64,000 bases of DNA from an uncultured Terracidiphilus sp. (GCA_964438125.1 CAYTJN010000001.1:42641-106640), one strand, 5' to 3'; shown: positions 1 through 48,654, counted from the first letter of the stretch. A program made the numbers and translations. Notes: a model not told the origin generated them from the letters alone.

Positions 1-2675
1 AGTCGGTGACTATCAACGATTCGATGGCGGGCACAACAATCTACTACACAACCAACGGGACCACGCCCACCGTTTCTTCGACACCGTACACAGGTGCAAT
101 CTCGGTAAGTGCAACTGAGACGATCGAAGCTATCGCGGTGAAGACGGGCTACACGAACAGCCCGGCCGCGGCGGCAGCTTATATCATCGCTCCAGCGCTG
201 CCACTGCCTGTGTTCTCGCCCGCGCCCGGCACCTATACTGGACCCCTAGCGGTGACGATCACTGAAGCCACCGGAGGTGCAATGATTTACTACACCACGG
301 ACGGCTCCATTCCCACCACCTCTTCGACGCCGTATACCGGCGCGATCTGGCAGTGTGAGACGCAGACGCTGAAGGCCATAGCAGTCGAAACAAACTACAC
401 TACCAGCGCCGTAGCGATAGCGGCTTACACCATTGCCCCGGTGCTGCCCTCACCAACGTTCAGCCTGGCCGGCGGTCCCGCAGCTTATCCCACTCCACAG
501 ACGGTGACAATCAGCGACTCATCGGCTGGTGCCACCATCTACTACACCACCAACGGCACCACGCCAACGGCAGCTTCGACGAAGTACACCGGCGCGATTA
601 CCGTCAGCACGACAGAGACAATCGAAGCCATCGCGATTGAGACGAACTGTACCGATAGCGCTGTCAGTTCGGTGTTGTACACCATCGCTAATTCGACACT
701 GCCAGCGCCGTCGTTCTCGCCAGCGGCCGGTACGTATTCGGGCTCTCAGTCAGTGACTATCAGTGACTCGATCGCCGGCACGAACATCTACTACACCACG
801 AATGGAACGACGCCCACCACATCGTCAACAAAGTACAATGGCGCGATTACGGTGAGCGCAATCGAAACTTTGGAAGCTATTGCTGTCGAGACAGGCCAAA
901 CCAATAGCCCTGTCGCTACGGCTGCTTACGTGATCAATACAGGTATTCCGGCCCCGACTTTCTCGGTTGCAGCCGGCACTTACACCTCGTCGCAAACAGT
1001 GACCATCAGCGATGCGACGGCGGGCACGACCATCTACTACACCACGAACGGAACGACGCCTAGCACATCGTCAACAAAGTACAGTAGTGCGATTACGGTG
1101 AGCGCAACCGAAACTCTGGAAGCTATTGCCGTCGAGACAGGTCAAACCAATAGCCCGGTCGCTACGGCTGCTTACGTCATCAACCCAGGTCTTCCGGCTC
1201 CGACGTTCTCGGTTGCGGCAGGTACTTACACCTCGTCGCAAACGGTGAGCATCAGCGATGCGACTGCGGGCACGACGATCTACTACACCACGAACGGCTC
1301 CGCGCCTACAACCTCATCTTCGGTTTACGGTGGCGCGATTACGGTGAGCTCAACGGAGACCTTGGAAGCAATCGCGGCAGAAGCGGGTTATACCAACAGT
1401 GCGGTGACTTCAGCGCTGTATACAATCAGCTCTTCAACTCTTCCGGCGCCTTCATTCTCGCCCGCGGCGGGCTTGTACACATCTCCGCAAGGGGTCAAGA
1501 TCACTGACGCGAGCGCCGGGGCCACTATCTACTACACAACCAATGGCACCACGCCCACAACCTCGTCGACTGTCTACACGGGCACAATATGGCAAAGCTC
1601 CACTCAGACGCTAGAGGCCATCGCAGTTCAGACGGGCTACGCCAACAGCGCTGTAACGACGGCTGCTTACACCATCGCTCCGGTGTTACCGACACCGACG
1701 TTCAGTCTCGCAGGCGGCCAGACCCCTTATGCCACGGCGCAATCCGTGACCATCAGCGACCAAGCCGGGGCCACCATCTACTACACCACCAACGGCACCA
1801 CGCCCACAGCCTCGTCAACCAAGTACAGCGGCGCAATCACTGTGAGCGCGACCGAAACAATTGAAGCCATCGCTATCGAGACCGGCTATACCAACAGCGC
1901 CGTGGCTTCGGTCCTGTACACCATCGCCCCTCCGACAGTGGCGGCACCTACATTCTCACCCGCGCCTGGTTTTTACACGTCCCCGCAAGGAGTTCAGATC
2001 GCCGATACGACTGGCGGGGCCACCATTTACTACACCACCGATGGAACCACGCCCACAACTTCATCCATCCAATACCGGGGCGCGATCTGGCAAAGTCAGT
2101 CACAGACGCTTCGGGCTATCGCAGTCGAGACAGGTTACGCAACCAGTCCAGTAACGACAGCGGCTTACACCATCGCCCCGGTGCTGCCTACGCCTACGTT
2201 TAGCCTTGCAGGCGGTCAGACACCTTATACCACGCCCCAAATCGTGACTATCAGCGACCAAGCGGGGGCGACCATCTACTACACCACCAACGGTACCACG
2301 CCCACAACCGCATCGGCCGTGTACAGCGGCGCTATTACGGTAAGTTCCACGGAGACGATCGAGGCTATTGCCGTCGAGACCGGCTTTACTAACAGTGCCG
2401 TAGGTTCGGTGTTGTACACCATTGCTACTTCAACCCTTCCGGCCCCTATGTTTTCACCAGGGGCCGGCACGTACACTACCTCGCAGTCGGTTTCAATTGC
2501 AGACGCGACGGCTGGCGCAACCATTTATTACACGACGAACGGGGCTATGCCCACCACCTCGTCCTCCGTCTACAGCGGCGCGATCTCGGTGAGCGCGACA
2601 GAGACGGTTGAAGCCATCGCCGTGGAGACGGGCTACATCACCAGCCCGCCCTCCACGGGGGCATACACCATCACG
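1..2675 (+). repeat. in-frame tandem coding repeats, period about 240 bp (about 80 aa), 11 units
   Basis: The IYYTT motif recurs 11 times. Units near 720-1430 are nearly identical at the DNA level (for example 808-935 vs 1046-1175, and 951-1060 vs 1189-1300). Confidence 0.85.
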
Positions 2676-3236
2676 GGCAGCGGAAGCTCCAATGTCGTTG
2701 AAGACTTTACGATCAGTTCCTCGGGGACCTCGGCGGTCGTCTCGCCGGGAGGCTCTGTGTCATACGCGCTTACTGTTACGCCACTCTCTCCCGCGATAAC
2801 GTTCCCAACCGCGATCAACCTGTCGGCCAATGGATTACCGCAAGGCGCCACGTACAGCTTTTCGCCAGCCGCGGTAGCGGAGGGCGCGGGCGCAACTGCA
2901 GTCGCCTTGACTGTCCAATTACCTCGGGCCGCCTCGGCACAACAACCGGCGGGTGGCATTGGGAGCCAGTTTAGCCCCAAAATTGCCCCACTAGCGCTTG
3001 GGTTGCTGCTGCTACCTTTTGCGGGCAGGCTTCGTCGCTCCGGAAAGAGAATGGGACGTGCTATGCCAGTGGTGCTCTTGCTTGTCGCTGTCGCTTTTGC
3101 CGTCATCGGTCTCGGTGGGTGTGGATCCACTAACGCATTGATCAGACCAGCCCAACAAAGTTACGCGGTGACCGTGATTGGGACCTCGGGCTCATTATCA
3201 AAATCCACAATTGTGACGCTGATTGTTACCCAATGA
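1..3236 (+). CDS. giant secreted/cell-surface repeat protein, 5' end cut by the window edge; 11 CHB_HEX_C-like (chitobiase/hexosaminidase C-terminal, Fn3-associated) modules plus a C-terminal Ig-like domain
   Basis: The frame is open to base 1. The codon before the GTG at 6 reads Ser and continues the repeat consensus QSVTISD. There are eleven copies of G(A/T)TIYYTT(N/D)GTTPTxSSxxYxGAIxVSxTETIEAIAVETGYTNS. The tail has Ig-like strands (SYALTVTP..., YAVTVIGTSGSLSKSTIVTLIVTQ). Confidence 0.75.
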   Translation, partial: SVTINDSMAGTTIYYTTNGTTPTVSSTPYTGAISVSATETIEAIAVKTGYTNSPAAAAAYIIAPALPLPVFSPAPGTYTGPLAVTITEATGGAMIYYTTDGSIPTTSSTPYTGAIWQCETQTLKAIAVETNYTTSAVAIAAYTIAPVLPSPTFSLAGGPAAYPTPQTVTISDSSAGATIYYTTNGTTPTAASTKYTGAITVSTTETIEAIAIETNCTDSAVSSVLYTIANSTLPAPSFSPAAGTYSGSQSVTISDSIAGTNIYYTTNGTTPTTSSTKYNGAITVSAIETLEAIAVETGQTNSPVATAAYVINTGIPAPTFSVAAGTYTSSQTVTISDATAGTTIYYTTNGTTPSTSSTKYSSAITVSATETLEAIAVETGQTNSPVATAAYVINPGLPAPTFSVAAGTYTSSQTVSISDATAGTTIYYTTNGSAPTTSSSVYGGAITVSSTETLEAIAAEAGYTNSAVTSALYTISSSTLPAPSFSPAAGLYTSPQGVKITDASAGATIYYTTNGTTPTTSSTVYTGTIWQSSTQTLEAIAVQTGYANSAVTTAAYTIAPVLPTPTFSLAGGQTPYATAQSVTISDQAGATIYYTTNGTTPTASSTKYSGAITVSATETIEAIAIETGYTNSAVASVLYTIAPPTVAAPTFSPAPGFYTSPQGVQIADTTGGATIYYTTDGTTPTTSSIQYRGAIWQSQSQTLRAIAVETGYATSPVTTAAYTIAPVLPTPTFSLAGGQTPYTTPQIVTISDQAGATIYYTTNGTTPTTASAVYSGAITVSSTETIEAIAVETGFTNSAVGSVLYTIATSTLPAPMFSPGAGTYTTSQSVSIADATAGATIYYTTNGAMPTTSSSVYSGAISVSATETVEAIAVETGYITSPPSTGAYTITGSGSSNVVEDFTISSSGTSAVVSPGGSVSYALTVTPLSPAITFPTAINLSANGLPQGATYSFSPAAVAEGAGATAVALTVQLPRAASAQQPAGGIGSQFSPKIAPLALGLLLLPFAGRLRRSGKRMGRAMPVVLLLVAVAFAVIGLGGCGSTNALIRPAQQSYAVTVIGTSGSLSKSTIVTLIVTQ

Positions 3237-3497: not shown

Positions 3498-4586
3498 TCA
3501 TCTGCGAGATATGTTTTTAGAGTGCAATGAATCTAGGTAAGGATTAATCGCCGACGCTATCCAAGGCGATATCTTGTCGATGCCGTACCGGTTGAAATGA
3601 CCACCGTCTGCATAGAATTCCGCATTATTGCTGAATTGTTGAGCGTCAAGCAACGGTCCGAGCCTCTCATATGCGGCGTGGTCGTACTGCCCCGGCCTGC
3701 TCGAATAGAAGGGCAGATGCACAAAGACCACAAGCGCCCCACTTTGTTTCGCCAAAGCGGAGATGCGTGCCGTGTAATCCGGCTCCAGGGGCTCATTCAG
3801 CGCGTACCATGCGGATGGCTGAACCCAATACCCATCCGCGTTGCCGAGACCAGCCTTCAATTCTGCGGCTTCTCGTGTTAGCTTCTGTTGAGGAGCGACT
3901 AAGCTACGGTCAATCAGCCTTCCACCCGGAATTCGAAAACTCCTGGTGCTATCGAAGTCCGTCCCGAGATAGTCCTTGCGAAATGCACTGCTCTTTCCGA
4001 ACCAGGCGGGAGCGATGCTTTGCACAAAGTAACTCATCTGCCGGTAAGGAAGGAATGCTGCATCCTCGGCGAAGTAGTGATTGATCACGAGTGGTGCACC
4101 TAGTATGTCTTTGGCATCCGCAATATAACGAAAAGCCGGATGACTGATATCCGCTCGTTCTACGACGGAGATCAAAATTAGCTTAGTTTCAGGATGGCAA
4201 GCCAATAACTCCTTGGCAACAATGTAATGCAGATTCCGTCCCTCGTAGGGTACGGCCAGATTGGCCACATGAATCGGACGCCCCAGTTTTGTGCTGAGAG
4301 CTGCCGCGAGGTCGGGTCCGCTCAGCGCAGCTTCAACACGGGAACTGCCGATAATTGCCACGTCAATTGGAGTTGGGTCGTTATGAATTCGCTCGTAATC
4401 CCAACGCAGCTTGAAGAGATCCGAATAGTCAAATTGTTGATATCGAATATAGCGATTGTGCGGCAGCAGAATAGATAAGAAGCAAAGGGCCGCAAAACTG
4501 CTTAATAGCACGCCCATCAGTCTCCATGCTCGACTCGTCTCAATCACAGCTTCTTCAGAAACAATATTCTCCATCTTCATTGTCAT
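3498..4586 (-). CDS. DltD/AlgJ-like SGNH-type membrane-anchored protein (putative extracytoplasmic O-acyltransferase partner of the MBOAT)
   Basis: It has an N-terminal TM helix (LMGVLLSSFAALCFLSILL), a block-I-like VAIIGSSRV and a C-terminal DGGHFN (DxxH-like). It lies 9 nt downstream of the MBOAT gene on the same strand. Confidence 0.5.
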   Translation of the reverse strand: MTMKMENIVSEEAVIETSRAWRLMGVLLSSFAALCFLSILLPHNRYIRYQQFDYSDLFKLRWDYERIHNDPTPIDVAIIGSSRVEAALSGPDLAAALSTKLGRPIHVANLAVPYEGRNLHYIVAKELLACHPETKLILISVVERADISHPAFRYIADAKDILGAPLVINHYFAEDAAFLPYRQMSYFVQSIAPAWFGKSSAFRKDYLGTDFDSTRSFRIPGGRLIDRSLVAPQQKLTREAAELKAGLGNADGYWVQPSAWYALNEPLEPDYTARISALAKQSGALVVFVHLPFYSSRPGQYDHAAYERLGPLLDAQQFSNNAEFYADGGHFNRYGIDKISPWIASAINPYLDSLHSKNISRR

Positions 4587-4595
4587 CGATCTCCG

Positions 4596-6146
4596 TTAGA
4601 ACTTGAAGTATATGAAGGATGTCGAACCACGTGACAGGAACGCGAACCCGAAGAACAGCACGACGCTCACTGCACCTACCCACACATAATTGAAGTTGAA
4701 CATGAAGCTGAATCGCGCCGGATCAACCTGGCGCCACTTATCCCACTCCAGAGCGGGCCGCACGCGATCCATGATCTGCTCTGTGTTAGGAAACAAGTAA
4801 ACGATGCAGAGCCCGACGGCAATAATGGGAATCATCATCGCATTTCCGCCGGAAGCCAAACTGGCAGACCGGTCGGACGAAATGCCAAGGCCATACAAGC
4901 CGGCCATGCCGGCAAAGATCCGCCACGCTGCGCTCATGCTGTCGGCACGGAATGGAACCTCTGCACTCACAAATGCAAGAAGAGTGAGCAATCCGAAGAC
5001 GAAAAGCGCGGGGCGAGTATCCTTCTTCCCGCGTCGCCTCTTTTTGGTGATCGCGTTATAAACTTCATTAATGCACATGAATGTGCCGTGCATGATGCCG
5101 AAAGCTACATAGGTCCAGCTTGGTCCATGCCACGTCCCAATGATCAGCATCGAAAGAAATGTCGGTAACAGCGCGGACACTGCGAGAGATGTCCATCGTC
5201 CATAACCTCGATCGGCGGACAAGCGCGTTAGCGGGATCGTCAACGGTTGGAAGATATACATGCGTACGAATCTGCTGAGCGTCATGTGCCACCGGCGCCA
5301 TAGCTCAGAGATGCTTGTGGACCTGAGGGGAGAAAAGAAGTTAAGTGGCAGCACAATCCCGAGCATCCGAGCGACTCCGATTGCCATGTCGGAGTAGCCT
5401 GAGAAGTCGAAATAGATCTGCAATGTGTAGGTGAAGGCCGCTCCCCAGGAGAGAAAAAAGCCGGGGTGAGCACCGCCTTGGGCGGCATTGAAGACTGGAT
5501 CGGCCCAGAGAGCGGCTGTATCGGCAAATACGGTTTTCTTAAAGAGTCCGAATGAGAAGATCACCAGGCCGATGAGCAGGTTTTGCGCGATGGACCGCCG
5601 GTCTGGACGCACGGCGAGTTGTGGCGCAACCTCCTGGTTAAGAGTGATGGGCCCGGAAAGGAGGGTGGGAAAGAAAGCTACAAACGCCATGTATTTCATC
5701 AGCCCGTCCGGAATTGCCCGGCCGCGCGCCACGTCCACCAGAAAGCCGATCTGCTGAAACGTATAAAAGGAAATCGCCAAGGGAGCCACAATATTAACAA
5801 AAGGACTGGTGGCTCCAAATACTCCGTACGCCGCGCCCGAAACAGCACTGAAGTACTTCAGATAAAGAAGAGTTCCGGCATTCGCAGTGACACCCAGAAT
5901 CAACCATATCTGTTTCGTCCGATGGTGATCCGTCCGGACAATCAACACGGCCAGAAGATAGTTGACAATAATGGACACGAGCAGAAGCGGAACATAACGC
6001 GGTTGAGCATGGGCATAAAACAACAGGGTCATCAAGACGAGAAATGGCAGACGCAGCGAATGGAGCCGCGTCAAAGATAGACAGTAATACACAATGAGAA
6101 CAAACGGCAGAAAGGCAAATAGAAAGACGAGGGAATTAAAACTCAT
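4596..6146 (-). CDS. MBOAT family membrane O-acyltransferase (DltB/AlgI-like)
   Basis: The 516-aa protein is polytopic. It carries the motifs FYTFQQIGFLVDV, YFDFSGYSDMAIG and the invariant-His region WRRWHMTLSRF. Confidence 0.85.
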   Translation of the reverse strand: MSFNSLVFLFAFLPFVLIVYYCLSLTRLHSLRLPFLVLMTLLFYAHAQPRYVPLLLVSIIVNYLLAVLIVRTDHHRTKQIWLILGVTANAGTLLYLKYFSAVSGAAYGVFGATSPFVNIVAPLAISFYTFQQIGFLVDVARGRAIPDGLMKYMAFVAFFPTLLSGPITLNQEVAPQLAVRPDRRSIAQNLLIGLVIFSFGLFKKTVFADTAALWADPVFNAAQGGAHPGFFLSWGAAFTYTLQIYFDFSGYSDMAIGVARMLGIVLPLNFFSPLRSTSISELWRRWHMTLSRFVRMYIFQPLTIPLTRLSADRGYGRWTSLAVSALLPTFLSMLIIGTWHGPSWTYVAFGIMHGTFMCINEVYNAITKKRRRGKKDTRPALFVFGLLTLLAFVSAEVPFRADSMSAAWRIFAGMAGLYGLGISSDRSASLASGGNAMMIPIIAVGLCIVYLFPNTEQIMDRVRPALEWDKWRQVDPARFSFMFNFNYVWVGAVSVVLFFGFAFLSRGSTSFIYFKF

Positions 6147-6193
6147 CCGTGGCTTCCTCCGGAGTTTAGATTGCTTTGAGTTAGTTAGTCAGG

Positions 6194-8122
6194 CTACACC
6201 GACTGGGGCTGTCGGGTACTTTCAACGAGAGTACCGAATACGACCACGCTTATGGGAAGTTCGGGTGGCTGGTATCCAACAAGATCAAGCGACCATTCTG
6301 TGCCGTCATCGGGCAAGTCAGAAATCTTTGTAAATCCGAGCTTTGCAAAATGATCGACAACTAGGGAGTTTTTCATGGTTGGCAGGTATACTCCCGTCAA
6401 ACGGAGAGCGCCGGCCCTCAGAGCGGCGGCTGCAACGTGCCCCAGCACGAGTTCTTCGACACGTCTCCCTAATACACGGCAACTCATTAGCCAGGTATCG
6501 CAATGCCACTCGAATTCTGCACAATCGAAGATCACCACAGAGATCATACCGTTGTCTCCGAAGCGATCCGCCAACCGGACCTGAATGCAAAATTTGCTGG
6601 GGTCGGTCTCGAAGCGCGCAATTTCATTTTCTGAATATCGCCGCGTTGTCAGATTAAACTGATTCGACTTGTTGATCAGTTGTGCGATGCGCACGCGGCC
6701 CACCGCGTCGAATGGCGCTATGGTTGCAACCATCTCAAGCGAGGCGAGGTAGTCTTCAAGATTGCCGATCTTCATGAGCGATGCGCGTTCTGCATTGGCA
6801 CCGTAATAATCGGCGCGTTTGAGATCCTCACTCGACAATCCAACGGCCTCAAAGTACCCCGCACGAGAGAGAATTCCTGCATAATCTGCCGGATCTTCAG
6901 TTAATTCAGGCACGGCCACTTCGGGAAGTAATTCGCGCACCAAGCCGCGCTCGACAGGATTATCGTCGAGAAAGACAATGGCGTCGATGCCGATGTTCAA
7001 GGTAGCCGCGATCTCACGAATGTTGTTGGCTTTGTCGTCCCAATTGGCGACGAACACGGCGATATGCTCTTCTCTGAGCAGCATCTCCGGATGTTTACGG
7101 AAGGGGAGGCGTGCGTTTTGCTCGTCATTTTTTGAGCAGACAGCCAGAACGATTCCCCTCTGTCGCAAGTTGAGAGCATAGCGCTGCAAAGCAAGATGAG
7201 CTTCCCCGGTGCTGCTGCCCTGGCCGAGCTGAATTCCATTGAGGCCGTCATCTCCAATCACACCTCCCCAAAGAGTGTTATCGAGATCCATGACCAGGCA
7301 CTTACGCGACTTGCCGCGCGCTGCAGCTAGAACGCGACACAGATGCTCGGCATGGAGCGGCGTGGCATCCATTGCCGCAGGAAGTTTCGCCTTGTGCCAG
7401 TCGCGCGCATCGTTCCACGCGGCAAGCCCGGTGAGGGCCGCAAGAGAGGCGGTATCCAAAATTAGGTCGGTGTCGCCTGCGATCTCGAAAAGCAATCGGT
7501 GATTGAATCGCTCAATCATCGCGCGAGCAGATCCTGGAAACTTTGCATCGTAGTTGCCGAAGAGCGACTCTGAAGGAGGAACAAGAGTTTGCAGCAGGCA
7601 GCATGTTCCGATTGTGTTGCGCACTCCTTCAGCCAAACCAGCAGCGTAACTGACAGCGGCATCCACCGCCGACTCGGCATCCGTTGTTGTGAGGCGTGCT
7701 TCGCTCAAACCGAGCGCACGATGATCCAAAGCAATCAGGATCGCGTCGAGGTGCGCACGGCCAAAGTCGGAGCCACGGTCCAGAAGTTGCTGTGCCGCCT
7801 GGCCGAACTCTGCCATGACAACGTCGAGCACCAGACCGTGGCGCAGGGCCGTCCCCGGTAGGGCCTGGGCGAGATAATCCACGGTATGAGAGGAAACGAT
7901 GCCGAGACGAAAAGGAGTCAAACCGACCTTTTCGGTCAGCCATTCGCGCTTCGCCTTGACTAACTTACGCAGCGCGTCCAATCCGGTGAGGTCCAAATCG
8001 AAGGCCGCCAGACGCTGAATCTCCGCGATGTCGGGAGACTCAGCCCTAAGCAGCGTCGACACACGGGCACGAAAGTTGGCCGGCTGCGGCAGATTCCACG
8101 AGAGTGAAAAGGGGCAATTCAT
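6194..8122 (-). CDS. FkbH-like HAD-superfamily IIIC protein (carrier-protein loading enzyme) with C-terminal GNAT-like fold
   Basis: It has the HAD motif I LVMDLDNTLWGGVIGDDG, then FLDDNP, and a C-terminal NQFNLTTRRY...LMSCRVLGRRVE with a conserved Cys. Its start overlaps the ACP stop by ATGA (8119-8122). Confidence 0.85.
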   Translation of the reverse strand: MNCPFSLSWNLPQPANFRARVSTLLRAESPDIAEIQRLAAFDLDLTGLDALRKLVKAKREWLTEKVGLTPFRLGIVSSHTVDYLAQALPGTALRHGLVLDVVMAEFGQAAQQLLDRGSDFGRAHLDAILIALDHRALGLSEARLTTTDAESAVDAAVSYAAGLAEGVRNTIGTCCLLQTLVPPSESLFGNYDAKFPGSARAMIERFNHRLLFEIAGDTDLILDTASLAALTGLAAWNDARDWHKAKLPAAMDATPLHAEHLCRVLAAARGKSRKCLVMDLDNTLWGGVIGDDGLNGIQLGQGSSTGEAHLALQRYALNLRQRGIVLAVCSKNDEQNARLPFRKHPEMLLREEHIAVFVANWDDKANNIREIAATLNIGIDAIVFLDDNPVERGLVRELLPEVAVPELTEDPADYAGILSRAGYFEAVGLSSEDLKRADYYGANAERASLMKIGNLEDYLASLEMVATIAPFDAVGRVRIAQLINKSNQFNLTTRRYSENEIARFETDPSKFCIQVRLADRFGDNGMISVVIFDCAEFEWHCDTWLMSCRVLGRRVEELVLGHVAAAALRAGALRLTGVYLPTMKNSLVVDHFAKLGFTKISDLPDDGTEWSLDLVGYQPPELPISVVVFGTLVESTRQPQSV

Positions 8123-8364
8123 TGCGTAGCCCTCCTGACAATAATGTCGAGCGCCTCTCCAATGTTCTTTAGTCCATCAATTTCACCGCTCGTGAAGCGG
8201 AACGAAAACTCTTTTTCCACGGCAACCAGAAAGCGAACATGGCTGAGACTGTCCCATCCCTCAACATTATCCGCAGTGAGGCTGTCATCGTACTGTAGGT
8301 CGTCCTCGTCGAATACGTCACGCATGATTTCGATTAATCGCGCAGCAGCTTCATCTCGGGTCAT
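8119..8364 (-). CDS. acyl carrier protein
   Basis: The 81-aa protein is acidic and has a phosphopantetheine-site-like GWDSLSHVRF. Confidence 0.8.
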   Translation of the reverse strand: MTRDEAAARLIEIMRDVFDEDDLQYDDSLTADNVEGWDSLSHVRFLVAVEKEFSFRFTSGEIDGLKNIGEALDIIVRRATQ

Positions 8365-8434: not shown

Positions 8435-9910
8435 TTACCAGCCTCCCACCAACTCGGCGTTGCGAATTCTCGGCCGATAAACGATAAGGCGATCGATCTT
8501 GCCGAGATCCTCGGTCGAGTCCTTGAGATCGATCGAGTGCTCGGTATCGGTCAGCCCGGTCGCAAGCACATAGCGATACTCGGTTGTCCCGTCGCCGCGA
8601 TCGAGAACCTCGGGCTTTCCCCCGCACACGTAATCTACCGACCAGTTAACGCGGAAGGAACTGTGCAGTGGAACCTTAGAGTGCTCCCAGGCTCGCTCGA
8701 CCATCCAATCACCGGGTTCAATCTGAAGCTTTCCGGAACTGGAAACAAAAGTACCTTCAGAGCTGCCAGTTCCCTGCGGTCCGGACTTGTCTCCTTGAAC
8801 CGCGAAGTTGAATTCCTTCTGATCAGAAGAAAAGTCTGAGAGCGTCGCAGTCCAGTTCTCTGCTACACGATCGTGCATAAGGACAATGCGCCGAATAGCG
8901 GGCCAGTCTGGCACGGTCTCTATTGAAGATGTCCGGCTTACCTGATAGCATCCATCGAGATTTGTTGGCGACTGCCCGTCCACGCTGACGGCCGGCCATG
9001 CGGTCAAAGGTCGATCACTTACAAGTTCCAGGCGCGTTCCCTCAATGCGTACATTCGCACTGCCGGAATCGCGCTCCTGCTCCGTCAGATGAAGCGAGTC
9101 AACATCGTGGGCCATCTCGCCGTTGTATTGACTTACCAATCCATCGAAATACTTGTTAAAGAACTCGGCGATCAATTCTTTGCCGCGAGCATTAGGGTGA
9201 ATCTCGTCGCTTAGCAGATCGCTTGGACTCGATCCGGTACGGAGAAGATACCCTCGCCACCAGTCCCGTTGCGGTTCGACGGCAAGCGCATACTTTCGGG
9301 CCATCGCGGGGATCTTGTGGTAGGACATTTCGTCATTCCACATTCGCTGGTGATACCAAAGCAAACCAGCGCAACCCGCCGGGCGGGAGAGTGTCAGATG
9401 AATCCCCTCGTCGCAACGCGGATCCGGCATCACATCCCCGTGATCTGTCTGCACGATGATGTCAGCCGCGGTACGCGATCGAAACAGCCGGATGATCTTC
9501 TCATAATCGCGGTGATCGCCATACACGTGAAAAATAATCAGGTCCGGATAGAACGCCGCAATGTCCTGTTCCGTTGTACGAACCAAGGCTTGCGACGGAA
9601 ATCCTCCAAGCGCACGATTCTCTACGACAAAGACTGTATTCGGATAGATCTGACGCCAATGCTCTACGACAGCTTCGTGCCATCCGCTGCGGGTGATCGA
9701 CTGGCCATAAAACAAAACCTTGAGAACCTTACGGTCGTTCGGTGAGCTGCCGCGGATGATCGACAGCGTGCGCGCGATTTTCTGTACATCTGGAACACTA
9801 TCGTGTTCCCGGAAGCGAACTAGCATGGTGGCAGCGAACACACCAAGAGTTGCTGCGACGCAGAGAACCAAAGCCACACGTAACCATATCTTGCGCATGG
9901 ATGAATTCAT
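8435..9910 (-). CDS. SGNH/GDSL-type hydrolase or acyltransferase with N-terminal signal/anchor and an extra C-terminal beta-rich domain
   Basis: It has an N-terminal hydrophobic segment, block I VLFYGQSITRSGW, block II ALGGF and block V SDEIHPNARG. About 250 aa at the C-terminus carry no motif I recognise. Confidence 0.6.
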   Translation of the reverse strand: MNSSMRKIWLRVALVLCVAATLGVFAATMLVRFREHDSVPDVQKIARTLSIIRGSSPNDRKVLKVLFYGQSITRSGWHEAVVEHWRQIYPNTVFVVENRALGGFPSQALVRTTEQDIAAFYPDLIIFHVYGDHRDYEKIIRLFRSRTAADIIVQTDHGDVMPDPRCDEGIHLTLSRPAGCAGLLWYHQRMWNDEMSYHKIPAMARKYALAVEPQRDWWRGYLLRTGSSPSDLLSDEIHPNARGKELIAEFFNKYFDGLVSQYNGEMAHDVDSLHLTEQERDSGSANVRIEGTRLELVSDRPLTAWPAVSVDGQSPTNLDGCYQVSRTSSIETVPDWPAIRRIVLMHDRVAENWTATLSDFSSDQKEFNFAVQGDKSGPQGTGSSEGTFVSSSGKLQIEPGDWMVERAWEHSKVPLHSSFRVNWSVDYVCGGKPEVLDRGDGTTEYRYVLATGLTDTEHSIDLKDSTEDLGKIDRLIVYRPRIRNAELVGGW

Positions 9911-17167: not shown

Positions 17168-18124
17168 TCACGCAGTACGGAAGATTTGGTAGTATCCCAA
17201 GGCTGCGAGCACTCGCTTGAATGCAAGTTCACGCGCATAATGTTTCGGAGTCAATTCTTCAAATGGAATCGTGCGACCCGGCTGAGTCAGCGTGGCTCGC
17301 CCGTCTACCAATCCGGTCTCGCGGGCTGCATGCAACCACCACTTTGCCTCGCCTCCGGCGTGGAAGCATTTCAGGCTCGCCCAAGATTCCGATCGCAGAA
17401 TGCTCTGCCCGCTCACGCCAAGTTTCGTCATCACGCGCTTTGCCGGCGAACGGCGCCAGCATCTCCAGAATGCGGGATCAAGATGGCCTCCACCCTCGCG
17501 CATGGCCAGCGCCGCCCACACGATCGCTTCTACGTGCATGATGCGCGGCAGATTATCGCCGCCCAGTTTGCCCACCAGCCAGTCCAGCCAATCCAGATCT
17601 GTCGATGCGCGCCAGTGCGCGACTCCGATATCCACATGGTGCGCGAGCCGGATTCCGCTGCCGAGAGCTGTCCTGACTACCTCGGGGGGGAAAAGGCAGT
17701 TCGGCTGTTGCCACATCAGCAATAGTCCGGTTGCGGGTGTTTTCTCAAACTGAAATCGATTGGGGAAATAAAGATCTGGATCCAGGAGCACCATCTCCGC
17801 ATCAGGTTCGCTCACTAGAAGTGGATCGGTGATCTTGCGCCAGCACGGGTGCCCGCGGCGAAACTTGCGCAGGTTGTTATATCTCGCGAAGACAGCATCC
17901 TCACGCGCCTTCAAATTGTCCTCGGAATAGACCGTCCACTTGTGAGACCTGACATCAAGAGCCGTCAAAACCTCTGAGAGTTCCTCGCTGTCCTGCCTCG
18001 AGTCGGTGATCAGACGCAGGTGTATCGATTCAAGAGAATTCGAAAACAAACTTTCTAACGCATCTTTGGCATAGCTTAGAGAGCGCGGCGAGAGCACCAT
18101 ATACACTTCGCGCATTGTAGACAT
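17168..18124 (-). CDS. hypothetical protein, possible GT-A-like nucleotide-sugar transferase (DxD-like LLDPDLYF)
   Basis: The 318-aa ORF is tightly packed: 13 nt after the C-T-TE gene and 6 nt before the next GT4. Only a DPD motif is recognisable. Confidence 0.4.
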   Translation of the reverse strand: MSTMREVYMVLSPRSLSYAKDALESLFSNSLESIHLRLITDSRQDSEELSEVLTALDVRSHKWTVYSEDNLKAREDAVFARYNNLRKFRRGHPCWRKITDPLLVSEPDAEMVLLDPDLYFPNRFQFEKTPATGLLLMWQQPNCLFPPEVVRTALGSGIRLAHHVDIGVAHWRASTDLDWLDWLVGKLGGDNLPRIMHVEAIVWAALAMREGGGHLDPAFWRCWRRSPAKRVMTKLGVSGQSILRSESWASLKCFHAGGEAKWWLHAARETGLVDGRATLTQPGRTIPFEELTPKHYARELAFKRVLAALGYYQIFRTA

Positions 18125-18137
18125 AGGGGGCTCCTGT

Positions 18138-20777
18138 TTATTTCAAAACTGCTGCGGGTTCACGCAAGCGAACCTCGGCAACGCCGGAGCGCTCCAGATC
18201 GGATCGTTCGGCTTCGGATCGTTCAAGACAGGCGCGAAGTTGCGCCGCCAAAACCTGGATGTTCGGTTCGCGGAAGACTAGGTCGTGATCGCCAGGCAGT
18301 TCAAACACCTCAACTCCACCTTCCGCGAAGGGAGTCCATCCCAGATCCAGCGGCAGCCGCGGATCCGGCTGGACGGAAGCTCGGAAGAGCGTCACCTTTC
18401 CTGACCAGGGTTGCGCACGATACTTCATCGCCGCCACCCAGGTTATGTCGTCGGTGCTTTTCATAAACGATGGTACGGTGCGAAAACCGAGCACGACCGC
18501 AAGCGAGTAGATCCGGCGCAAGGTTCTTGTAAAAAACTTCTGCCACAGATACTCGATCTTTTCTGTCATCGATAGATCGGAGAGATTTCCTAGAAAGCGC
18601 TCGATTCGGCGACTGAGTTGAAGCCTCACGGAATCGTTCCGTTGCGCGACGCCGATGCAGTCACGCTGGCGGCTATCGAGCATGCCGAGTAGTTTCACCT
18701 GTTCCCCTAGTGTGCGCAACTGATGTGCGATTTCAAGGGCAATCGTGCCCCCGAATGAATATCCGAGGAAATAGTACGGACCCGTTGGTTGGATCTCCCT
18801 CATTTCCTTCAGATAGAACGCTGCCTGATCTTCTAAGCGCAGAAGTGCCGGCTGCTCAGCCAGCAGCGACTGAGCTTGAATGCCATAAATAGGGTGTTTG
18901 GTACCCACCAGCATAGCGAGTTGGTAAAAGCGAATTACGTTTCCACCAGCGCCGTGAATGATAAACAGAGGAGCTGCCGTTCCCTCCGGCTGCATCGGTA
19001 CGATTGAGGAACTGCCGTTTGCGGAAAGACGCTGCGTGACTAACTGCGCCATCCGTTCAACCGTGTGCCCTGAGAACAAAGAAGCTAGACCAAAACTGAG
19101 CGAGTAAGTCTTATTGATTCGGGAGACGATTTGCATTGCGGCCAGTGACCGCCCGCCGAGGTCAAAGAAACTGTCTCGAACGCTCAGATTTGTCGTCCCT
19201 ATTGCCGTCTCCCATATTCTGGCGATCTGTGCCTCAAGCGCGTCGCGGGGAGCCACGTGGAGTTCTCTCTGCTTTGCGGCGACATCTGTTCCCTCGATGG
19301 CGCCTGCGTTCCGATGTCCATTCGGACGGATGACTCGTTCCTGGGCTGCGCCCTCAGAAGCCCCGTCTGAAACCGCAATGAGCTGCTGGCTGCTTTCGCC
19401 TTTCGCCGCTTCCCCCGCCAGACTTTCCGCGCTCGATAGAATGGTGTCAAGAATCTGCACATAAAGCTTGAGAATCCGTTGAATCGTCGAAACGCGAAAG
19501 AATGCTGGATTGAATTCCAACTGGAGGCGGGGACCTTCAGTACGCTCCACGATGCTCAGCATCAGGTCGAACATCGTTCCTGGACTGACGGAGCGCAGGG
19601 GAAAGATCTCCAAAGAAGGCGTCTTCTGGGCCTGCATGAAGGCCTTCTGATAAATGAAGTACACCTGCAGTGAGATTTGATTTTGATCACGGCAAAAAAA
19701 CTCGTCATCGATCAGATCCTCGAAAGGTAGGTCCTGGTGAGCCAGAGCACCAAGTGTCCAGTTACGAACGCTTTCTACGATCGAGTCAAGAGTATCTTCT
19801 TTTCCGATCTTAACGCGAATGACCTGAGGGTTTGAAAAGGGACCGATCAGGTCCTCCGTTTGTTGACGGCGATTGGCGCAGGGCGTGCCGATAAGGATGT
19901 CTCCCTGCTCCGTCAGCCTGTGCAGAGTCGCGGCGTAGGCCGCGAGCAGCAACATATAAAGTGTGACCCCGCGAAGCGCGCAGAAATCCCGAGCCTGCCG
20001 AACCAGATCGGGAGCCAGCAAAAGAGTCTCGATATCGCCGTGTTCTTCGACTCCTCCTCCGTGAATATCTCGGGGGATTCGAAGAGGAGTGAAGTTCCCA
20101 CCGAGAGTTAGACGCCAGTAGGCCAAAGACTCGGTCGACTGTTCTCCCTTTCTCCATTGGTCGAGCCAGACGGCGAAATCGCCAAACTGAATGGGCAACT
20201 CCGGGAGGCAAGGGGGAAGGTTTCGCATCAGGCCGTCATAGATTGCAGCAAAGTCCCTGAGCACTACGCCGTTCGACCATCCGTCGCACACGCTGTGATG
20301 AATCGTGATCAGGAGTATGTGCTGGTCGGCTCCCATCTGTATTGCCCGAGCACAAAGCAGTGGTCCCTTCTCCATATCGATCTTGATACGGGCTTGCTCA
20401 CGAATGATTGCTTCGGCCTGGCGTTGACGGGCATCATTCGGTAGATATTGCAGGTCATCTAAATGCAGGGGCACTTCGATGGGCGAATGAATGATCTGAG
20501 ATAACTGGCCATCTACTACTTCGAAAGTCGTGCGCAGCGACTCGTGTCGACGCACCAGTTCCGTAAGCGCGGCTGCCGCTAGATCCGTAGAGAATGTTCC
20601 TCGGCAGGTCCATGCGAGGGGCATATTCAGTGAGTGGTTGCCGGGGTACATTCGATGCAGCAACCAAAAACGTGTTTGGCACGGTGTCGCCGGCATCACA
20701 AAGTCGTCCGTTGGCGTCGGTATCGCGGGGCGCTCAACTTCGTGAGGAGGAATCGACTTGTCCGGTGAGCTCTTCAT
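18138..20777 (-). CDS. NRPS terminal module C-T-TE with no adenylation domain
   Basis: The C domain has HHSVCDGWS (aa 159-167). The T domain has FFDLGGRSL (Ser544, about nt 19146-19148). The TE has GYSFGG (Ser674) and GDHD (His831). Its ATG shares one base with the upstream TGA at 20777. Confidence 0.9.
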   Translation of the reverse strand: MKSSPDKSIPPHEVERPAIPTPTDDFVMPATPCQTRFWLLHRMYPGNHSLNMPLAWTCRGTFSTDLAAAALTELVRRHESLRTTFEVVDGQLSQIIHSPIEVPLHLDDLQYLPNDARQRQAEAIIREQARIKIDMEKGPLLCARAIQMGADQHILLITIHHSVCDGWSNGVVLRDFAAIYDGLMRNLPPCLPELPIQFGDFAVWLDQWRKGEQSTESLAYWRLTLGGNFTPLRIPRDIHGGGVEEHGDIETLLLAPDLVRQARDFCALRGVTLYMLLLAAYAATLHRLTEQGDILIGTPCANRRQQTEDLIGPFSNPQVIRVKIGKEDTLDSIVESVRNWTLGALAHQDLPFEDLIDDEFFCRDQNQISLQVYFIYQKAFMQAQKTPSLEIFPLRSVSPGTMFDLMLSIVERTEGPRLQLEFNPAFFRVSTIQRILKLYVQILDTILSSAESLAGEAAKGESSQQLIAVSDGASEGAAQERVIRPNGHRNAGAIEGTDVAAKQRELHVAPRDALEAQIARIWETAIGTTNLSVRDSFFDLGGRSLAAMQIVSRINKTYSLSFGLASLFSGHTVERMAQLVTQRLSANGSSSIVPMQPEGTAAPLFIIHGAGGNVIRFYQLAMLVGTKHPIYGIQAQSLLAEQPALLRLEDQAAFYLKEMREIQPTGPYYFLGYSFGGTIALEIAHQLRTLGEQVKLLGMLDSRQRDCIGVAQRNDSVRLQLSRRIERFLGNLSDLSMTEKIEYLWQKFFTRTLRRIYSLAVVLGFRTVPSFMKSTDDITWVAAMKYRAQPWSGKVTLFRASVQPDPRLPLDLGWTPFAEGGVEVFELPGDHDLVFREPNIQVLAAQLRACLERSEAERSDLERSGVAEVRLREPAAVLK

Positions 20778-23700
20778 CAGGCATTGGTTCTCCGAAACTT
20801 TTCCCTTGAAACAGGCGCAATGACGGGTCCCGCGGGAGGCTTTTCAGTGCTTGAGATATTGGCTTCAACAAGAGCATTCGACAGACTGGCGATGGTGCGA
20901 TGCTGAAAAATCTGCGCGGGTTGGATCGGTAGTCCTTCATGCCCGGCACGGGCTGAAATCCTGAAAATAAGAAGCGAGTCAGCTCCCAACTCAAAGATGC
21001 TATCGGTGATGCTGACTCGATCGAGATTCAAAACATCAGCCCAGATTGCCACCAGCTTTTGCTGCTCAGGCGTTGTCGCAGGGGTAAACTCCCGCGTTTT
21101 AGTATGGGTTCCAAAGGTCGGTTCTGGCAAAGACCTGCGGTCGATCTTACCGTTAGCAGTGCGCGGCAAGGCGGGCAGCAAGGAGATGACAGTCGGATGC
21201 ATATACTCAGGCAGTTTCGCAGCCAGCAGGGAGTGCAGTTGCGCGTCTAGATCTATTGGCGGGGTGACCATCGCCGACTCCACCCAGGCCGCCAGCCTCA
21301 CGTCACCGGGCCTGACTTGGACTGCGGTCACCACCGCATCTCGTACCGATGGATGACTCGCAAGAGCTGCCTCTATTTCGCCCAGTTCAATCCTGAAGCC
21401 GCGTACCTTCACCTGGAAATCGGTCCGTCCCTGCAGTTCAATGTGACCGTTCTGGAGCCAGCGCGCCTGATCGCCTGTGCGGTAGATTCGTCCCTGGCCG
21501 AATGGGTTCGGCAGAAATTTTGCGGCAGTCAAATCGGGTCTCTTCCAGTAGCATCGAGCCAACCCGACCCCACCAATGTATAGCTCGCCGGTTACTCCCA
21601 ACGGTACTGGTTGCAGGCGCTCGTCAAGCACATAGAACTGGGTGTTGGCGATGGGCGGTCCAATCGGCACCGGGCCTGTCCGTTTTTCGAGCCGGGTTGC
21701 CGAAGACCAGATGGTGGTCTCCGTCGGCCCGTAAACGTTCCATACATCGTCACTGCAATCCATCAGCGAATCGGCAAGTTCGCGGGCCAGAGCCTCGCCG
21801 CCGCAGAGCACTTTGAGCCGCGGAAGCCCCTTCCAGCCTGCCTCTAGCAGAATCCGCCAACCTGCCGGCGTCGCCTGCATCACTGTGGCCTGGGTCTGCT
21901 CCAGCAGGTTGAGCAATTGGTACCCATCGACAACCTGTTCTTTGGTAGCAATTACCAGCCTGCCCCCAGTTACGAGAGGCAGAAAGAGTTCAAGCGCGGC
22001 AATGTCGAACGAAAGAGTTGTGACCGAAACTAGCGTGTCCGTAGCGTTCAAGCCAGGTTCCCGCTCCATGCTCCGAAGCAGGTTGGTCAGTGCTCCATGT
22101 TCGATGGCTACGCCCTTGGGCTGTCCCGTGGAGCCGGAGGTATAAATCACATACGCCAAAGAATCGGGCTCATTTTTCGTGACAAGGTCCGTGGTACCTT
22201 CCCTCGCCCATAATGTCCGCTCGCTGTCAAGGCAAACGACCCGCGCGCTGGCGTGCAGCCTTGAGGCCAAGTGTTCCTGGGTAAGCAGCAGGGCTACGTG
22301 CGCGTCAGAAAGTACCCATTCCAGGCGGCTGATAGGGTGGCTGGGGTCGAGGGGTAGATATGCCGCGCCCGCCTTGAGTACTCCCAATACCGCGCCCAGC
22401 ATCTGGAAGGAGCGCTCAAGGCATACGCCCACAAGAGAGCCTTCGCCAATTCCCTGGCGGCGGAGATGTCGGGCCAACCGATTACTGTATTCGTTAAGTT
22501 GTCCGTAGGTCCACCGCGCTCCGTCGCAGATTACCGCAACACGATCGGGTGAATATGTGGCTTGTTTCTCAATGGCTCGATGGACCGGTTCAAACGGCCC
22601 GAAATCCACCGCCGTGCGGTTCCACTCGTCGAGCACCAGCCTTCGTTCGCTTTCATCCAAAACCTCGAGATCCTCGACCTCGCGGCCTGCGTCCGCAGCT
22701 ATTCCGCGCAGAATCGTTGCGTACGAGGCCAGCCAGCGTTTGAGTGTTTCGCTGTCGATCAGGTCGGTATTGTAATCGCAATTCATCAGAAGATCGTCGT
22801 CGGTTTCAACGATATTCAAGAAGAGGTCCGTGTTCACGAATCTCTTCGGATTGGCATGCACTTCTGTAGCAAGCCCCTCGAAGTGGAGATTTGTTCCCAG
22901 TTTCTCCAAGTTGAACTGGACTTCAATCAATGGCAGGCGGCTTGAATCCCGCTGAATCGGCAGCTTGCGCAACAGCGTGCCGTAGGTGAATTCCTGATGG
23001 TCATAAGCATCGAGAAGTTGTCCGCGCGTGGTGGCCATGTGTTCTTTGACTGTGATGGCCCTCGATAGAACGCTCAGAATCGGGAGGAAATGCACGCAGT
23101 GTCCTACGAGGCTCGCGTCTTCATATAAGGCTTGTCCGGCAGATGAAATGCCGACCACCACTTCGGACTGCCGCGTCAGTCGATGCAGCAGAATCTGAAA
23201 CGCCGAAAGCAGGGTCACATACAGCGTGCAGCCAAGTCTGGAGCTGATTTTTTTAAGCTCCCCGGATAGCTCCGCACCCAAAGATGATTGCAGTGTCGCT
23301 CCCTTGTAGGACTTCATCGCTGGGCGCGGCCGATCGGTGGGCAGGTCCAGCACCGGTGTGTGTCCAGTGAAAACCTCTATCCAGTAACGCTCGTTTTCGG
23401 CATAAGTGCCCGCTTGAGTTTCTTCGAACTCCTTCAGCGCATAACTGCTAAAGGGAACCAGCGGCGCCAGAGCCGGTTTGGAATGGGTCTTTGATGCACT
23501 GTAGATCTTGCTCATATCCTCAAGCAGTTGGTTCGATGACCACCCGTCGAGTACGATATGATGCCCAGTCGCAAGTAGCAGTAACTCTTCGGGGGCTGTG
23601 CGGAAGAGCGTTGCCCGGAAAAGCGGGCCACGAGCCAAATCGAAGGGCTTGCATCCTTCTTCCGCGATACGCGCGTTGATGAATGCCTTACGCTCTTCGG

Positions 23701-44628: not shown

Positions 44629-44644
44629 GATCAGCCTTTCCAAC

Positions 44645-45814
44645 TCAGTGAACAGCCAGGGCCGCAAAACTTGCCATGGTCACGAATGGCGCTAACTGTT
44701 GCATCACGAAGCCCACTTTGGCCATTCCACTCTTGGGCACGTAGACGATGTCGCCGGGATAAAGCGAGACTTCCATGCCGCCATTTGGCTTCAAAAGATC
44801 TTTGAAACGGACATATTGAGTCTTGTCCCCCTTTGAACGGTGGACGACCTGAATCTCCGGATTTCCACCTGCGGAATCGTTCACCCCACCTGCCTCGCCC
44901 AAAACCGAAGCGACAGTTGAATCGTGCTTTAAGGCCACCGGCCCAGGATGCTGCACCTGCCCCATAATGGTTATGGTTCTTGTCGACAACGCGGGCACAA
45001 ATACTACGTCGTTGCGTCGTAATCGCAGATCTGCGAGCGGACTGCCCGATGTCAGCAGTTGTTGTAATTCAACCCAGTACACTTGATCCCCGCGGTAAAT
45101 CACACACTGCTCTGGCATGCTGCCATCGGGGCGTGCTTGTATGCCGCCTCTGGAGAGCACTTCCAGCAGAGTGGGCGTTTGTTCAAAGCTCACCATGCCG
45201 GGATTCTTCACGTCTCCTAGTAAAGTGACATGATTTGAGCCATATTTCTCCACCTCGACGGTCGCGGCGAGCTTTGTGTAGTAAGGGGACATCGCCTCCA
45301 CAATCGTCTGCCCCGCTTGCTCGCGAGTCAGGTCAGCAAGCTTGATCGGCCCGACGAGCGGGAGCGTCACCCGACCGTCTGGACCAATCACATCTTTGCT
45401 TGCCAAATCGGTCCTGCCAGGATACTGAATGGATATTTCATCCCCCGGTCCCAGCGTGTACTCCTCATCCACTGAAGGCTCGAACTTGCGTAGGGCCTCG
45501 ATGGGGCTCAGTTTCAGTTGTGGGTCAGGCAGATTCTCCTGGTTCGAACCTCCAGTTGACTGATCGCTGCGGGGCGAGTCCTTGGCCGACGTCTGACCGT
45601 CTGCTCCCTTGGCTTCAGCCGGCTGCGTGCAGACCGCGCCAAGTGCAAAGAGAGTGATGCCGCATAGCTTAAGCGCTTGACGTTGAATCGGCAGATTCAC
45701 AGATAACTCCTTCAGCAAACGCTTGGCGGATTGCTTAGAGACGCGGCCGGCAAGCGCTGCCACAACAGCATAAATTGGATTCGACGCTGCACGCCGAATG
45801 CTGCGCTCGTTCAT
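44645..45814 (-). CDS. Wza-like outer-membrane polysaccharide export protein (Poly_export + SLBB)
   Basis: The Poly_export motif is YTLGPGDEISIQYPGRTDL. The SLBB-like repeats are RGDQVYWV...RRNDVVFVP and YPGDIVYVP. It has a 4-nt ATGA overlap with the upstream GT2. Confidence 0.85.
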   Translation of the reverse strand: MNERSIRRAASNPIYAVVAALAGRVSKQSAKRLLKELSVNLPIQRQALKLCGITLFALGAVCTQPAEAKGADGQTSAKDSPRSDQSTGGSNQENLPDPQLKLSPIEALRKFEPSVDEEYTLGPGDEISIQYPGRTDLASKDVIGPDGRVTLPLVGPIKLADLTREQAGQTIVEAMSPYYTKLAATVEVEKYGSNHVTLLGDVKNPGMVSFEQTPTLLEVLSRGGIQARPDGSMPEQCVIYRGDQVYWVELQQLLTSGSPLADLRLRRNDVVFVPALSTRTITIMGQVQHPGPVALKHDSTVASVLGEAGGVNDSAGGNPEIQVVHRSKGDKTQYVRFKDLLKPNGGMEVSLYPGDIVYVPKSGMAKVGFVMQQLAPFVTMASFAALAVH

Positions 45815-48457: not shown

Positions 48458-48654
48458 GGTGATCGCTCCACAGTGCTTCTGCTTGCGACGGGTCCTGCCT
48501 ACTGTTCTCAATTTGATCTGTAGACCAATCGAACCCGTGGAAGGGAAGAAACGAGGTTACGGCGGTCTCATGACCGGTAAAGATGAAAAGGGAAGCTTAC
48601 GTAGACGCGTTCCTCAGGAAGGCGCCCGAATTGCGGTGGTTATGGCGGTTCTCG

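Follow-up and report, generated by a model that had tools for sequence, protein, structure and literature searches.

We analysed a 64,000-nucleotide (nt) stretch of DNA from an uncultured Terracidiphilus sp. (here called the window; all window coordinates are counted from its first letter), in which five minus-strand genes combine an FkbH-type loading protein and a carrier protein with the parts of a putative membrane acyl-transfer relay. In order of reading, these genes encode SGNH491 (491 aa, 8435-9910), with an N-terminal membrane anchor, an SGNH domain and a C-terminal beta-sandwich; a stand-alone acyl carrier protein (ACP; 81 aa, 8119-8364); a long-form FkbH-like protein (642 aa, 6194-8122); an MBOAT (516 aa, 4596-6146); and D362 (362 aa, 3498-4586, with a start possibly two codons further downstream), a membrane-anchored, DltD-like protein of the SGNH fold. 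An earlier, sequence-only reading had described the last four of these as a cassette. Its four open reading frames (ORFs) are all present where it had placed them, the motifs that it quoted (DSLSH, DLDNT, SCRV and WRRWHM) are all found, and both the 4-nt overlap of the ACP and FkbH genes and the 9-nt gap between the MBOAT gene and the fourth ORF are exact. The four genes are thus real, but the conserved unit has five, as the SGNH491 gene precedes that of the ACP in contigs of related Acidobacteria, directly or nearby (L001, L003, L005 and L006). The FkbH and MBOAT genes are separated by 47 nt, a Shine-Dalgarno-like GGAG or GGAGG lies ahead of every start among the four ORFs, and a promoter and terminator scan of the cassette detected no intervening signal above chance.

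The carrier protein matches PF00550 at 23.8 bits and has its phosphopantetheine serine, Ser39, within DSLSH (8239-8253). Its best match in the PDB is the putative ACP 2lml (3e-13) and not DltC. The protein encoded next to it is built from an FkbH_N domain, an HAD-IIIC phosphatase domain and a C-terminal transferase domain, and scores 297.8 bits against TIGR01686 (cut-off 146.65), 60.7 bits against TIGR01681 (cut-off 35.75) and 47.3 against the FkbH_N model PF21211 (cut-off 27). The N-terminal and HAD part also matches PDB entry 3slr (BF1531) at 8e-69. Both 2lml and 3slr, the latter from B. fragilis, are structural-genomics entries without an assigned function and are the closest solved relatives of the ACP and of the FkbH N-terminal and HAD domains, respectively, and may have their origin in cassettes of an equivalent kind. 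At about 640 aa, the window protein shares the long form with the FkbH enzymes of tetronate pathways.

Catalytic residues were assessed by aligning the C-terminal 383 residues of the FkbH-like protein with three kinds of homologue: a ZmaN-type HAD-IIIC protein from the zwittermicin-type cluster on B. thuringiensis HD-1 pBMB431, a Streptomyces protein from a cassette of the methoxymalonyl-ACP type (KSIII, ACP, acyl-CoA dehydrogenase and 3-hydroxyacyl-CoA dehydrogenase), and cassette homologues from S. meliloti, Sphingomonas and Stutzerimonas. The window protein carries DLDNT (7274-7288, residues 279-283), CSKN (7127-7138), DDNP (6956-6967) and SCRV (6473-6484). DLDxT(L/I)W and LMSCRV are invariant throughout the alignment, including D279, D281 and T283, and Cys548 in LMSCRV is its single invariant cysteine. 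The phosphatase Asp and the catalytic Cys, on which the sequence-only reading had staked its idea, therefore both align with the ZmaN-type and Streptomyces proteins. Every sequence hallmark of the FkbH family is found here, namely the domain model, DxDxT with the downstream motifs, the cysteine, and a dedicated ACP alongside. In the published mechanism, 1,3-bisphosphoglycerate (1,3-BPG) gives a phosphoglyceryl-S-enzyme, then a glyceryl-S-enzyme, and finally glyceryl-ACP (PMC9057759). The conserved Asp motif and Cys548 are exactly the residues that this mechanism requires, and the FkbH-like protein is on these grounds a putative glyceryl-S-ACP synthase acting on 1,3-BPG.

The third component of the relay matches PF03062 and has the histidine expected of an MBOAT in WRRWHM (5283-5300). 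Its best NCBIfam match is TIGR04091, the DltB equivalog, at 176.6 bits and thus under the cut-off of 375; it aligns with DltB structures (PDB 6bug) at 1e-33, with WRRWHMTLS placed over the WNRWHMSLS of DltB. Its last six residues are FIYFKF (4599-4616), a feature absent from the sequence-only reading, and they fit the FxYxxF acyl-shuttle motif. The tyrosine of this motif carries the acyl group, and it resides on the microprotein DltX in the Dlt system and is fused to the C-terminus in PatA-type MBOATs, while the non-Dlt MBOAT-SGNH pathways use acyl-CoA and hence no carrier protein (PMC12148441). The presence of FIYFKF on an MBOAT that is encoded together with an ACP means that the fused shuttle of the acetyl-CoA systems is here combined with the carrier-protein supply of Dlt. 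The tail is common to the family: among MBOATs in the FkbH loci described below, a strict terminal FxYxxF is seen in 43 and [IL]xYxxF in 8, the remainder being fragments. An MBOAT of 521 aa, ssI, is required for sanxan in S. sanxanigenens (PMC5399355) and might be part of a cassette of the methyltransferase-bearing kind described below.

D362 has no match in Pfam, NCBIfam or PDB sequences, and a profile search against the PDB was likewise negative. It belongs to a sizeable family, with 218 matches in a word-indexed search, all without annotation, and 870 cluster representatives at E<=1e-3 in an exhaustive profile search. An AlphaFold model built with 36 homologues (pLDDT 81.6, pTM 0.82) places a single N-terminal helix ahead of an alpha/beta domain. 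In a Foldseek comparison of this model with the PDB, DltD structures rank first (E 2e-5 to 1e-3, probability 1.0, TM 0.35-0.38), with TesA and PatB next. Ser82 in GSSR (4338-4349) and Asp327 and His330 in DGGH (3597-3608) are invariant across the 36 homologues. The label SGNH-fold, DltD-like is justified at the level of the fold only, as the DltD family PF04914 is unmatched and the TM scores to DltD are weak. In this the family searches bore out the sequence-only reading in part: TIGR01686 and PF03062 are matched, but the fourth ORF matches no DltD or SGNH family. In one member of the D362 family, P0256 (650 aa), the D362-like domain occupies residues 317-641 and follows an N-terminal half of ∼316 aa; this protein is possibly a fusion that may reveal a partner.

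SGNH491 likewise has no Pfam or NCBIfam match of its own, though a few of its homologues reach PF13472. Its AlphaFold2 model (pLDDT 84.6, pTM 0.85) contains an N-terminal membrane helix, an SGNH domain and a C-terminal beta-sandwich, and Foldseek places it closest to the two-domain acetyl-mannan esterase 6hfz (E 2e-10), then to Axe2 acetylxylan esterases. Its minus-strand motifs GQSIT (9692-9706) and DEIHPN (9191-9208), which belong to an invariant GQS...G...DEIHPN pattern, include G69, Q70, S71, D235 and H238, all invariant. The Ser/Asp/His set expected of an SGNH partner thus occurs twice in the cassette, as S82/D327/H330 in D362 and as S71/D235/H238 in SGNH491. Each model has an N-terminal helix, and the predicted topology is outward, which would make both proteins extracytoplasmic. 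SGNH491 is a putative periplasmic polysaccharide acyltransferase or esterase, and may serve as the final transferase or, alternatively, trim or edit the esters.

The cassette is by no means confined to the window. A scan of one genome per species with the FkbH alignment returned at least 579 relatives, from which the best 80 were taken (full length, 42-71% identity). Their hosts are Acidobacteriota, Sphingomonas, Novosphingobium, Bradyrhizobium, Caulobacterales, Acetobacteraceae, Burkholderiales, Stutzerimonas, Pseudomonas, Gemmatimonadota, one cyanobacterium, Nitrospinaceae and Magnetococcales, and the module is widespread. Partners were identified with iterated hidden Markov models (HMMs) on six-frame ORFs, counting ACP genes up to 2.5 kb and MBOAT genes up to 5 kb from that of FkbH, and frequencies were taken from the 54 loci with full flanks (>=5 kb on each side), which cover Acidobacteriota, Alpha-, Beta- and Gammaproteobacteria, Gemmatimonadota, Cyanobacteria and Nitrospinota. 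The co-occurrence that the sequence-only reading had asked to see measured is strong: an ACP accompanies FkbH in 51/54 loci, an MBOAT in 38/54, a DltD-like anchored protein with GSS/GDS...DxxH in 35/54, and all three in 33/54. The DltD-like partner is found in 35 of the 38 loci that bear an MBOAT and never without one. Counts for this partner are lower bounds, since the HMM misses divergent members such as a 409-aa protein of S. meliloti with GGST...DPGH. Flanking genes belong most often to the families GT2, GT4/GT1, Wzy_C, GDP-mannose dehydratases/epimerases and AT3, though many neighbours are unrelated.

The S. meliloti example (L087, L088) lies on pSymB, where an operon encodes an MBOAT ending in ...FLYQGF, the 409-aa partner, an ACP and an FkbH-like protein (L087 8852-13887, equal to CP140955.1 1048481-1053516). 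The rkpR capsule-export gene cluster and a gene of the KpsF/GutQ family lie ∼4 kb from this operon. The 409-aa partner is annotated as a 'TonB-dependent receptor' yet carries the GGST...DPGH motifs, and in strain 1021 the FkbH-like match falls into two pieces, possibly by a frameshift. In some Acidobacteria, several modules are stacked. In L005 (1-18285), three FkbH-ACP pairs fall inside 21 kb, and an AT3 acyltransferase gene lies ∼1 kb downstream of one pair; in L006 (1-11077), three MBOAT genes and a GDSL-like gene lie between an FkbH gene and the D362 homologue.

Several sister cassettes contain additional enzymes. A SAM methyltransferase lies between FkbH and MBOAT in sphingomonads and is present in 16/80 loci; a MaoC dehydratase and an SDR/KR protein occur fused or split, with the fusion in 14/80; and a Glyoxalase_4/VOC gene, epimerase-like, is found in 15/80. 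The order ACP-FkbH-methyltransferase-MBOAT-D362 recurs in six loci of sphingomonads and Phenylobacterium (L008, L009, L010, L017, L020 and L029), and is often followed by the VOC/glyoxalase gene. Since these accessory enzymes act on hydroxy-acyl thioesters, their presence supports glyceryl-ACP as the primary product, which they would convert to O-methylglyceryl, lactyl or epimerised units. FkbH pathways are known to O-methylate glyceryl units, and DH, KR, FkbH and ACP make up the domain set proposed to form D-lactyl-ACP in the bryostatin (BryA) loading module. The window cassette has none of the methyltransferase, MaoC/SDR or VOC genes, so that plain glycerate is predicted as the substituent here.

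In the window, the cassette is the final element, at the 3' end, of a ∼45-kb Wzx/Wzy-type exopolysaccharide (EPS) cluster, which runs along the minus strand from ∼48.5 kb down to 3.5 kb. The cluster comprises genes for a WecG/TagA-STAS glycosyltransferase, a GT2 protein, a Wza-like exporter, a priming Bac_transf enzyme, a GDP-mannose dehydratase and a Wzx-like flippase, then FAAL, polyketide synthase (PKS) and nonribosomal peptide synthetase (NRPS) genes, then seven glycosyltransferase and hexapeptide-acyltransferase genes, and then the cassette, which is co-directional with the last glycosyltransferases at a spacing of 70-71 nt.

Taken together, these data lead us to propose, with a confidence only slightly on the favourable side of even, that the five genes form an operon-like, carrier-protein-dependent MBOAT-SGNH system, which would esterify an exopolysaccharide with glyceryl groups drawn from 1,3-BPG by way of the ACP. 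The FkbH-like protein would convert 1,3-BPG into a (phospho)glyceryl thioester on Cys548, the HAD domain would remove the phosphate, and the glyceryl group would pass to the phosphopantetheine arm of the adjoining ACP. The MBOAT would then take glyceryl-S-ACP at the cytoplasmic face and, using its conserved histidine, move the acyl group to Tyr513 in its own FIYFKF tail at the outer face. From there D362 would accept it on the catalytic Ser82 and hand it on to the polysaccharide as an O-ester, with or without SGNH491 as an intermediary; the beta-sandwich of SGNH491 would bind glycan as in AlgX, with a division of labour like that of AlgJ and AlgX. We favour this model because family membership and the catalytic residues of all parts are present, and because the genes are coupled or tightly spaced and co-conserved across phyla, with glycan families as their commonest neighbours. 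An EPS is favoured as the target because the cassette ends an EPS cluster that has its own priming transferase, Wzx, Wza-like exporter and many glycosyltransferases. Least certain in the model are which polymer accepts the group, which acyl group is carried and what the second SGNH protein does.

Several points weigh against the proposal. About 30% of the homologous FkbH-ACP loci lack an MBOAT, which implies that an FkbH-ACP pair can serve other acceptors; these loci adjoin genes for glycan enzymes, including WcbI, a TylF-type methyltransferase, a polysaccharide deacetylase and a GT2+GT9 fusion. AT3 acyltransferases were considered as a substitute for the MBOAT in such loci, and no locus of this kind was found. 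Glycan enzymes account for about a fifth of flanking proteins, and many loci lie outside obvious glycan clusters, such that context does not fix the target polymer. The resemblance of D362 to DltD is weak in the TM range given above and does not extend to a sequence-level family. Finally, the substrate specificity of this FkbH clade may differ, with 42-59% identity among the recovered cassette loci and about 26-30% to the PKS-type FkbH enzymes.

The same machinery could acylate the O-antigen or core of lipopolysaccharide, peptidoglycan, a capsule or a membrane glycolipid rather than the EPS encoded upstream, which we consider unlikely. Known MBOAT-SGNH pairs act on peptidoglycan, teichoic acids, alginate and cellulose (PMC12148441), the cassette stands alone among unrelated genes in many of the 80 loci, the share of glycan enzymes among flanking proteins is low, and the upstream neighbours in L003 are unrelated to glycan synthesis. 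Against this, the window cassette shares its direction with the final glycosyltransferases of the EPS cluster and closely follows them, glycan genes remain the most frequent neighbours overall, and the S. meliloti cassette abuts capsule-export genes.

A change of acyl group, either because this FkbH clade loads another acyl-phosphate or acyl donor or because the MBOAT uses acetyl-CoA while FkbH and ACP serve a separate purpose, appears distinctly unlikely. The modest identity to the biochemically studied FkbH types would allow it, and PatA-type MBOATs with the same fused tyrosine motif do use acetyl-CoA. However, the HAD phosphatase motifs and the single invariant cysteine are all retained, and the TIGR01686 score is twice its cut-off. 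The FkbH, ACP and MBOAT genes are moreover tightly linked and co-conserved across phyla, and the methyltransferase, dehydratase/reductase and VOC accessory genes are intelligible only if their substrate is a hydroxy-acyl thioester.

The sequence-only reading would also have failed had the ACP been shown to feed the PKS, and the evidence gives no link between the two. The assembly line in question (18138-30765, minus strand) consists of a FAAL-ACP protein, a 2816-aa KS-AT-ACP-aminotransferase-C-A-PCP protein and a C-PCP-TE protein, and lies between the Wzx flippase and glycosyltransferases; as an iturin-like assembly line for a beta-amino-fatty-acyl peptide, it suggests a lipopeptide-decorated or lipid-anchored glycan. 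The AT domain carries GHSIG and HAFH, the signature of a malonyl-type AT. A glyceryl-ACP starter or extender, or a tetronate precursor, made for the FAAL/PKS/NRPS proteins beside unrelated MBOAT and SGNH acetylation genes is very improbable, even with a hybrid PKS/NRPS 10 kb upstream in the same orientation and with all characterised FkbH enzymes serving polyketide or NRPS pathways, and we rejected it on the malonyl-type AT signature and the comparative context: the cassette keeps its gene order in related Acidobacteria with no PKS within 10 kb (L003 and L005 among them), 74/80 further FkbH loci are without a PKS/NRPS/FAAL-like match (6/80 have one), the window gene inventory holds neither FkbI/FkbK-type (hydroxymalonyl-ACP) dehydrogenases nor a FabH-like tetronate synthase, the assembly line possesses its own carrier domains, and seven glycan genes lie between it and the cassette.

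Other features of the window deserve mention. Convergent with the cassette is the gene of a giant secreted repeat protein (6-3236, plus strand; L001 11345-17473), which is 2042 aa long in the full contig and has at least 11 CHB_HEX_C_1/Fn3_assoc repeat pairs; in the Terracidiphilus locus L006, the cassette is flanked by a comparable repeat protein that has lectin domains. At the other end of the EPS cluster, a glycosyltransferase of the WecG/TagA family carries a fused STAS domain (47123-48511, minus strand). The combination is unusual and hints that the first committed steps are regulated in a partner-switching manner. Four further ORFs have no significant Pfam match. The first, of 741 aa (42442-44667, minus strand), is a possible chain-length regulator that adjoins the Wza-like exporter inside the EPS cluster; the second, of 605 aa (33111-34928, minus strand) and also inside the cluster, is a weakly PMT_2-like membrane protein that could be the polymerase. 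The others are an ORF of 318 aa (17168-18124, minus strand) between the NRPS and a GT4, and one of 478 aa (50531-51967, plus strand) beyond the upstream end of the cluster.

The sequence-only reading had called the cassette uncharacterised, and our literature search agrees with it. No description of a cassette joining FkbH/HAD with MBOAT, SGNH and polysaccharide genes was found in the literature searched, subscription literature being outside the reach of the search. The only papers in it that join FkbH with MBOAT concern aeruginosin and suomilide biosynthetic gene clusters, where the roles of the enzymes are unrelated, or are irrelevant. Such a cassette goes unmentioned in Aravind 2010 and in the SGNH review papers, and the gellan and sanxan literature searched identifies no genes for glyceryl transfer. 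The cassette is probably an undescribed, widespread variant of the machinery for acetylation or D-alanylation of envelope polymers.

Returning to the proposed glyceryl-transfer system, its interest lies first in the donor. MBOAT-SGNH acylation is currently divided between two donor modes, acetyl-CoA for PatA, AlgI and WssH and D-alanyl-DltC for Dlt alone, with the non-Dlt pathways stated to be carrier-free (PMC12148441); the cassette would break this dichotomy. If the proposal is correct, central glycolysis, through 1,3-BPG, would be tied directly to the decoration of surface glycans, and FkbH enzymes would gain a role beyond polyketide and NRPS chemistry. The loci would also supply candidate genes for the attachment of glycerate, lactate or O-methylglycerate as esters to exopolysaccharides, capsules or O-antigens in soil Acidobacteria, sphingomonads, rhizobia (S. 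meliloti pSymB, beside the rkp capsule-export genes), Bradyrhizobium and Stutzerimonas. Glycerate-type substituents govern the gel properties of sphingans, and they could affect phage, immune or plant recognition. In addition, D362, with its 870 cluster representatives, and SGNH491 constitute two protein families without a Pfam model. More tentatively, and with a little less than even confidence, we suggest that a long-form FkbH, an ACP, a Tyr-tailed MBOAT and a DltD-like SGNH protein define a second broad class of carrier-dependent transmembrane acylation beside Dlt. This class would place glycolysis-derived hydroxy-acyl esters on the surface glycans of diderms (glyceryl or, with the accessory enzymes, O-methylglyceryl, lactyl and epimerised groups), and it is possibly the genetic basis of the glycerate esters of gellan-type sphingans.

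How the cassette stands among known systems can be judged component by component. With the FkbH-family synthases (FkbH, OzmB, ZmaN, Mad7 and the FkbH domains of BslA and AerB) it has in common TIGR01686, DxDxT, one invariant cysteine and an adjoining ACP; its partner, however, is a membrane acyltransferase relay, as opposed to a PKS/NRPS, a FabH-like tetronate synthase or FkbI/FkbK dehydrogenases. The enzyme set of a BryA-type DH-KR-FkbH-ACP module is found free-standing in the sister glycan-acylation cassettes and is absent from the window.

The comparison with Dlt, from which the sequence-only reading had started, holds for the relay of carrier, MBOAT and SGNH protein. Both have a carrier for cytoplasmic loading, MBOATs that are homologous to each other, an anchored SGNH protein, which in the cassette has a DltD-like fold, and an FxYxxF shuttle. 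It does not hold for the shuttle tyrosine, which is fused to the MBOAT as in PatA and AlgI, whereas Dlt has the separate microprotein DltX, of which the cassette has no counterpart; nor does it hold for D362 beyond the fold, with PF04914 unmatched and the MBOAT itself under the DltB equivalog cut-off. The loader of Dlt is the adenylating enzyme DltA, whereas an FkbH/HAD-IIIC protein takes its place in the cassette, where a stand-alone AMP-binding gene of the DltA type is absent and AMP-binding domains are limited to FAAL and NRPS proteins at a distance of 10-22 kb. The acyl group is D-alanine in Dlt and a predicted hydroxy-acid here, Dlt modifies Gram-positive teichoic acids whereas the hosts of the cassette are diderms without them, and the cassette has an extra protein that combines SGNH with a beta-sandwich.

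The acetylation systems PatA/PatB, AlgI/AlgJ/AlgF/AlgX and WssH/WssI resemble the cassette, with a C-terminal FxYxxF fused to the MBOAT, one or two periplasmic SGNH-like partners, diderm hosts and glycan targets. The pairing of AlgJ with AlgX is mirrored by the anchored SGNH protein of the cassette and its companion, an SGNH protein with a domain of carbohydrate-binding type; an AlgF-like gene was not seen. These systems use acetyl-CoA and no carrier protein (PMC12148441), whereas the cassette encodes a dedicated ACP and a loader for it. The cassette is thus Dlt-like in its dependence on a carrier, PatAB- and AlgIJX-like in its fused shuttle and in the glycan targets of diderms, and a member of neither system as defined.

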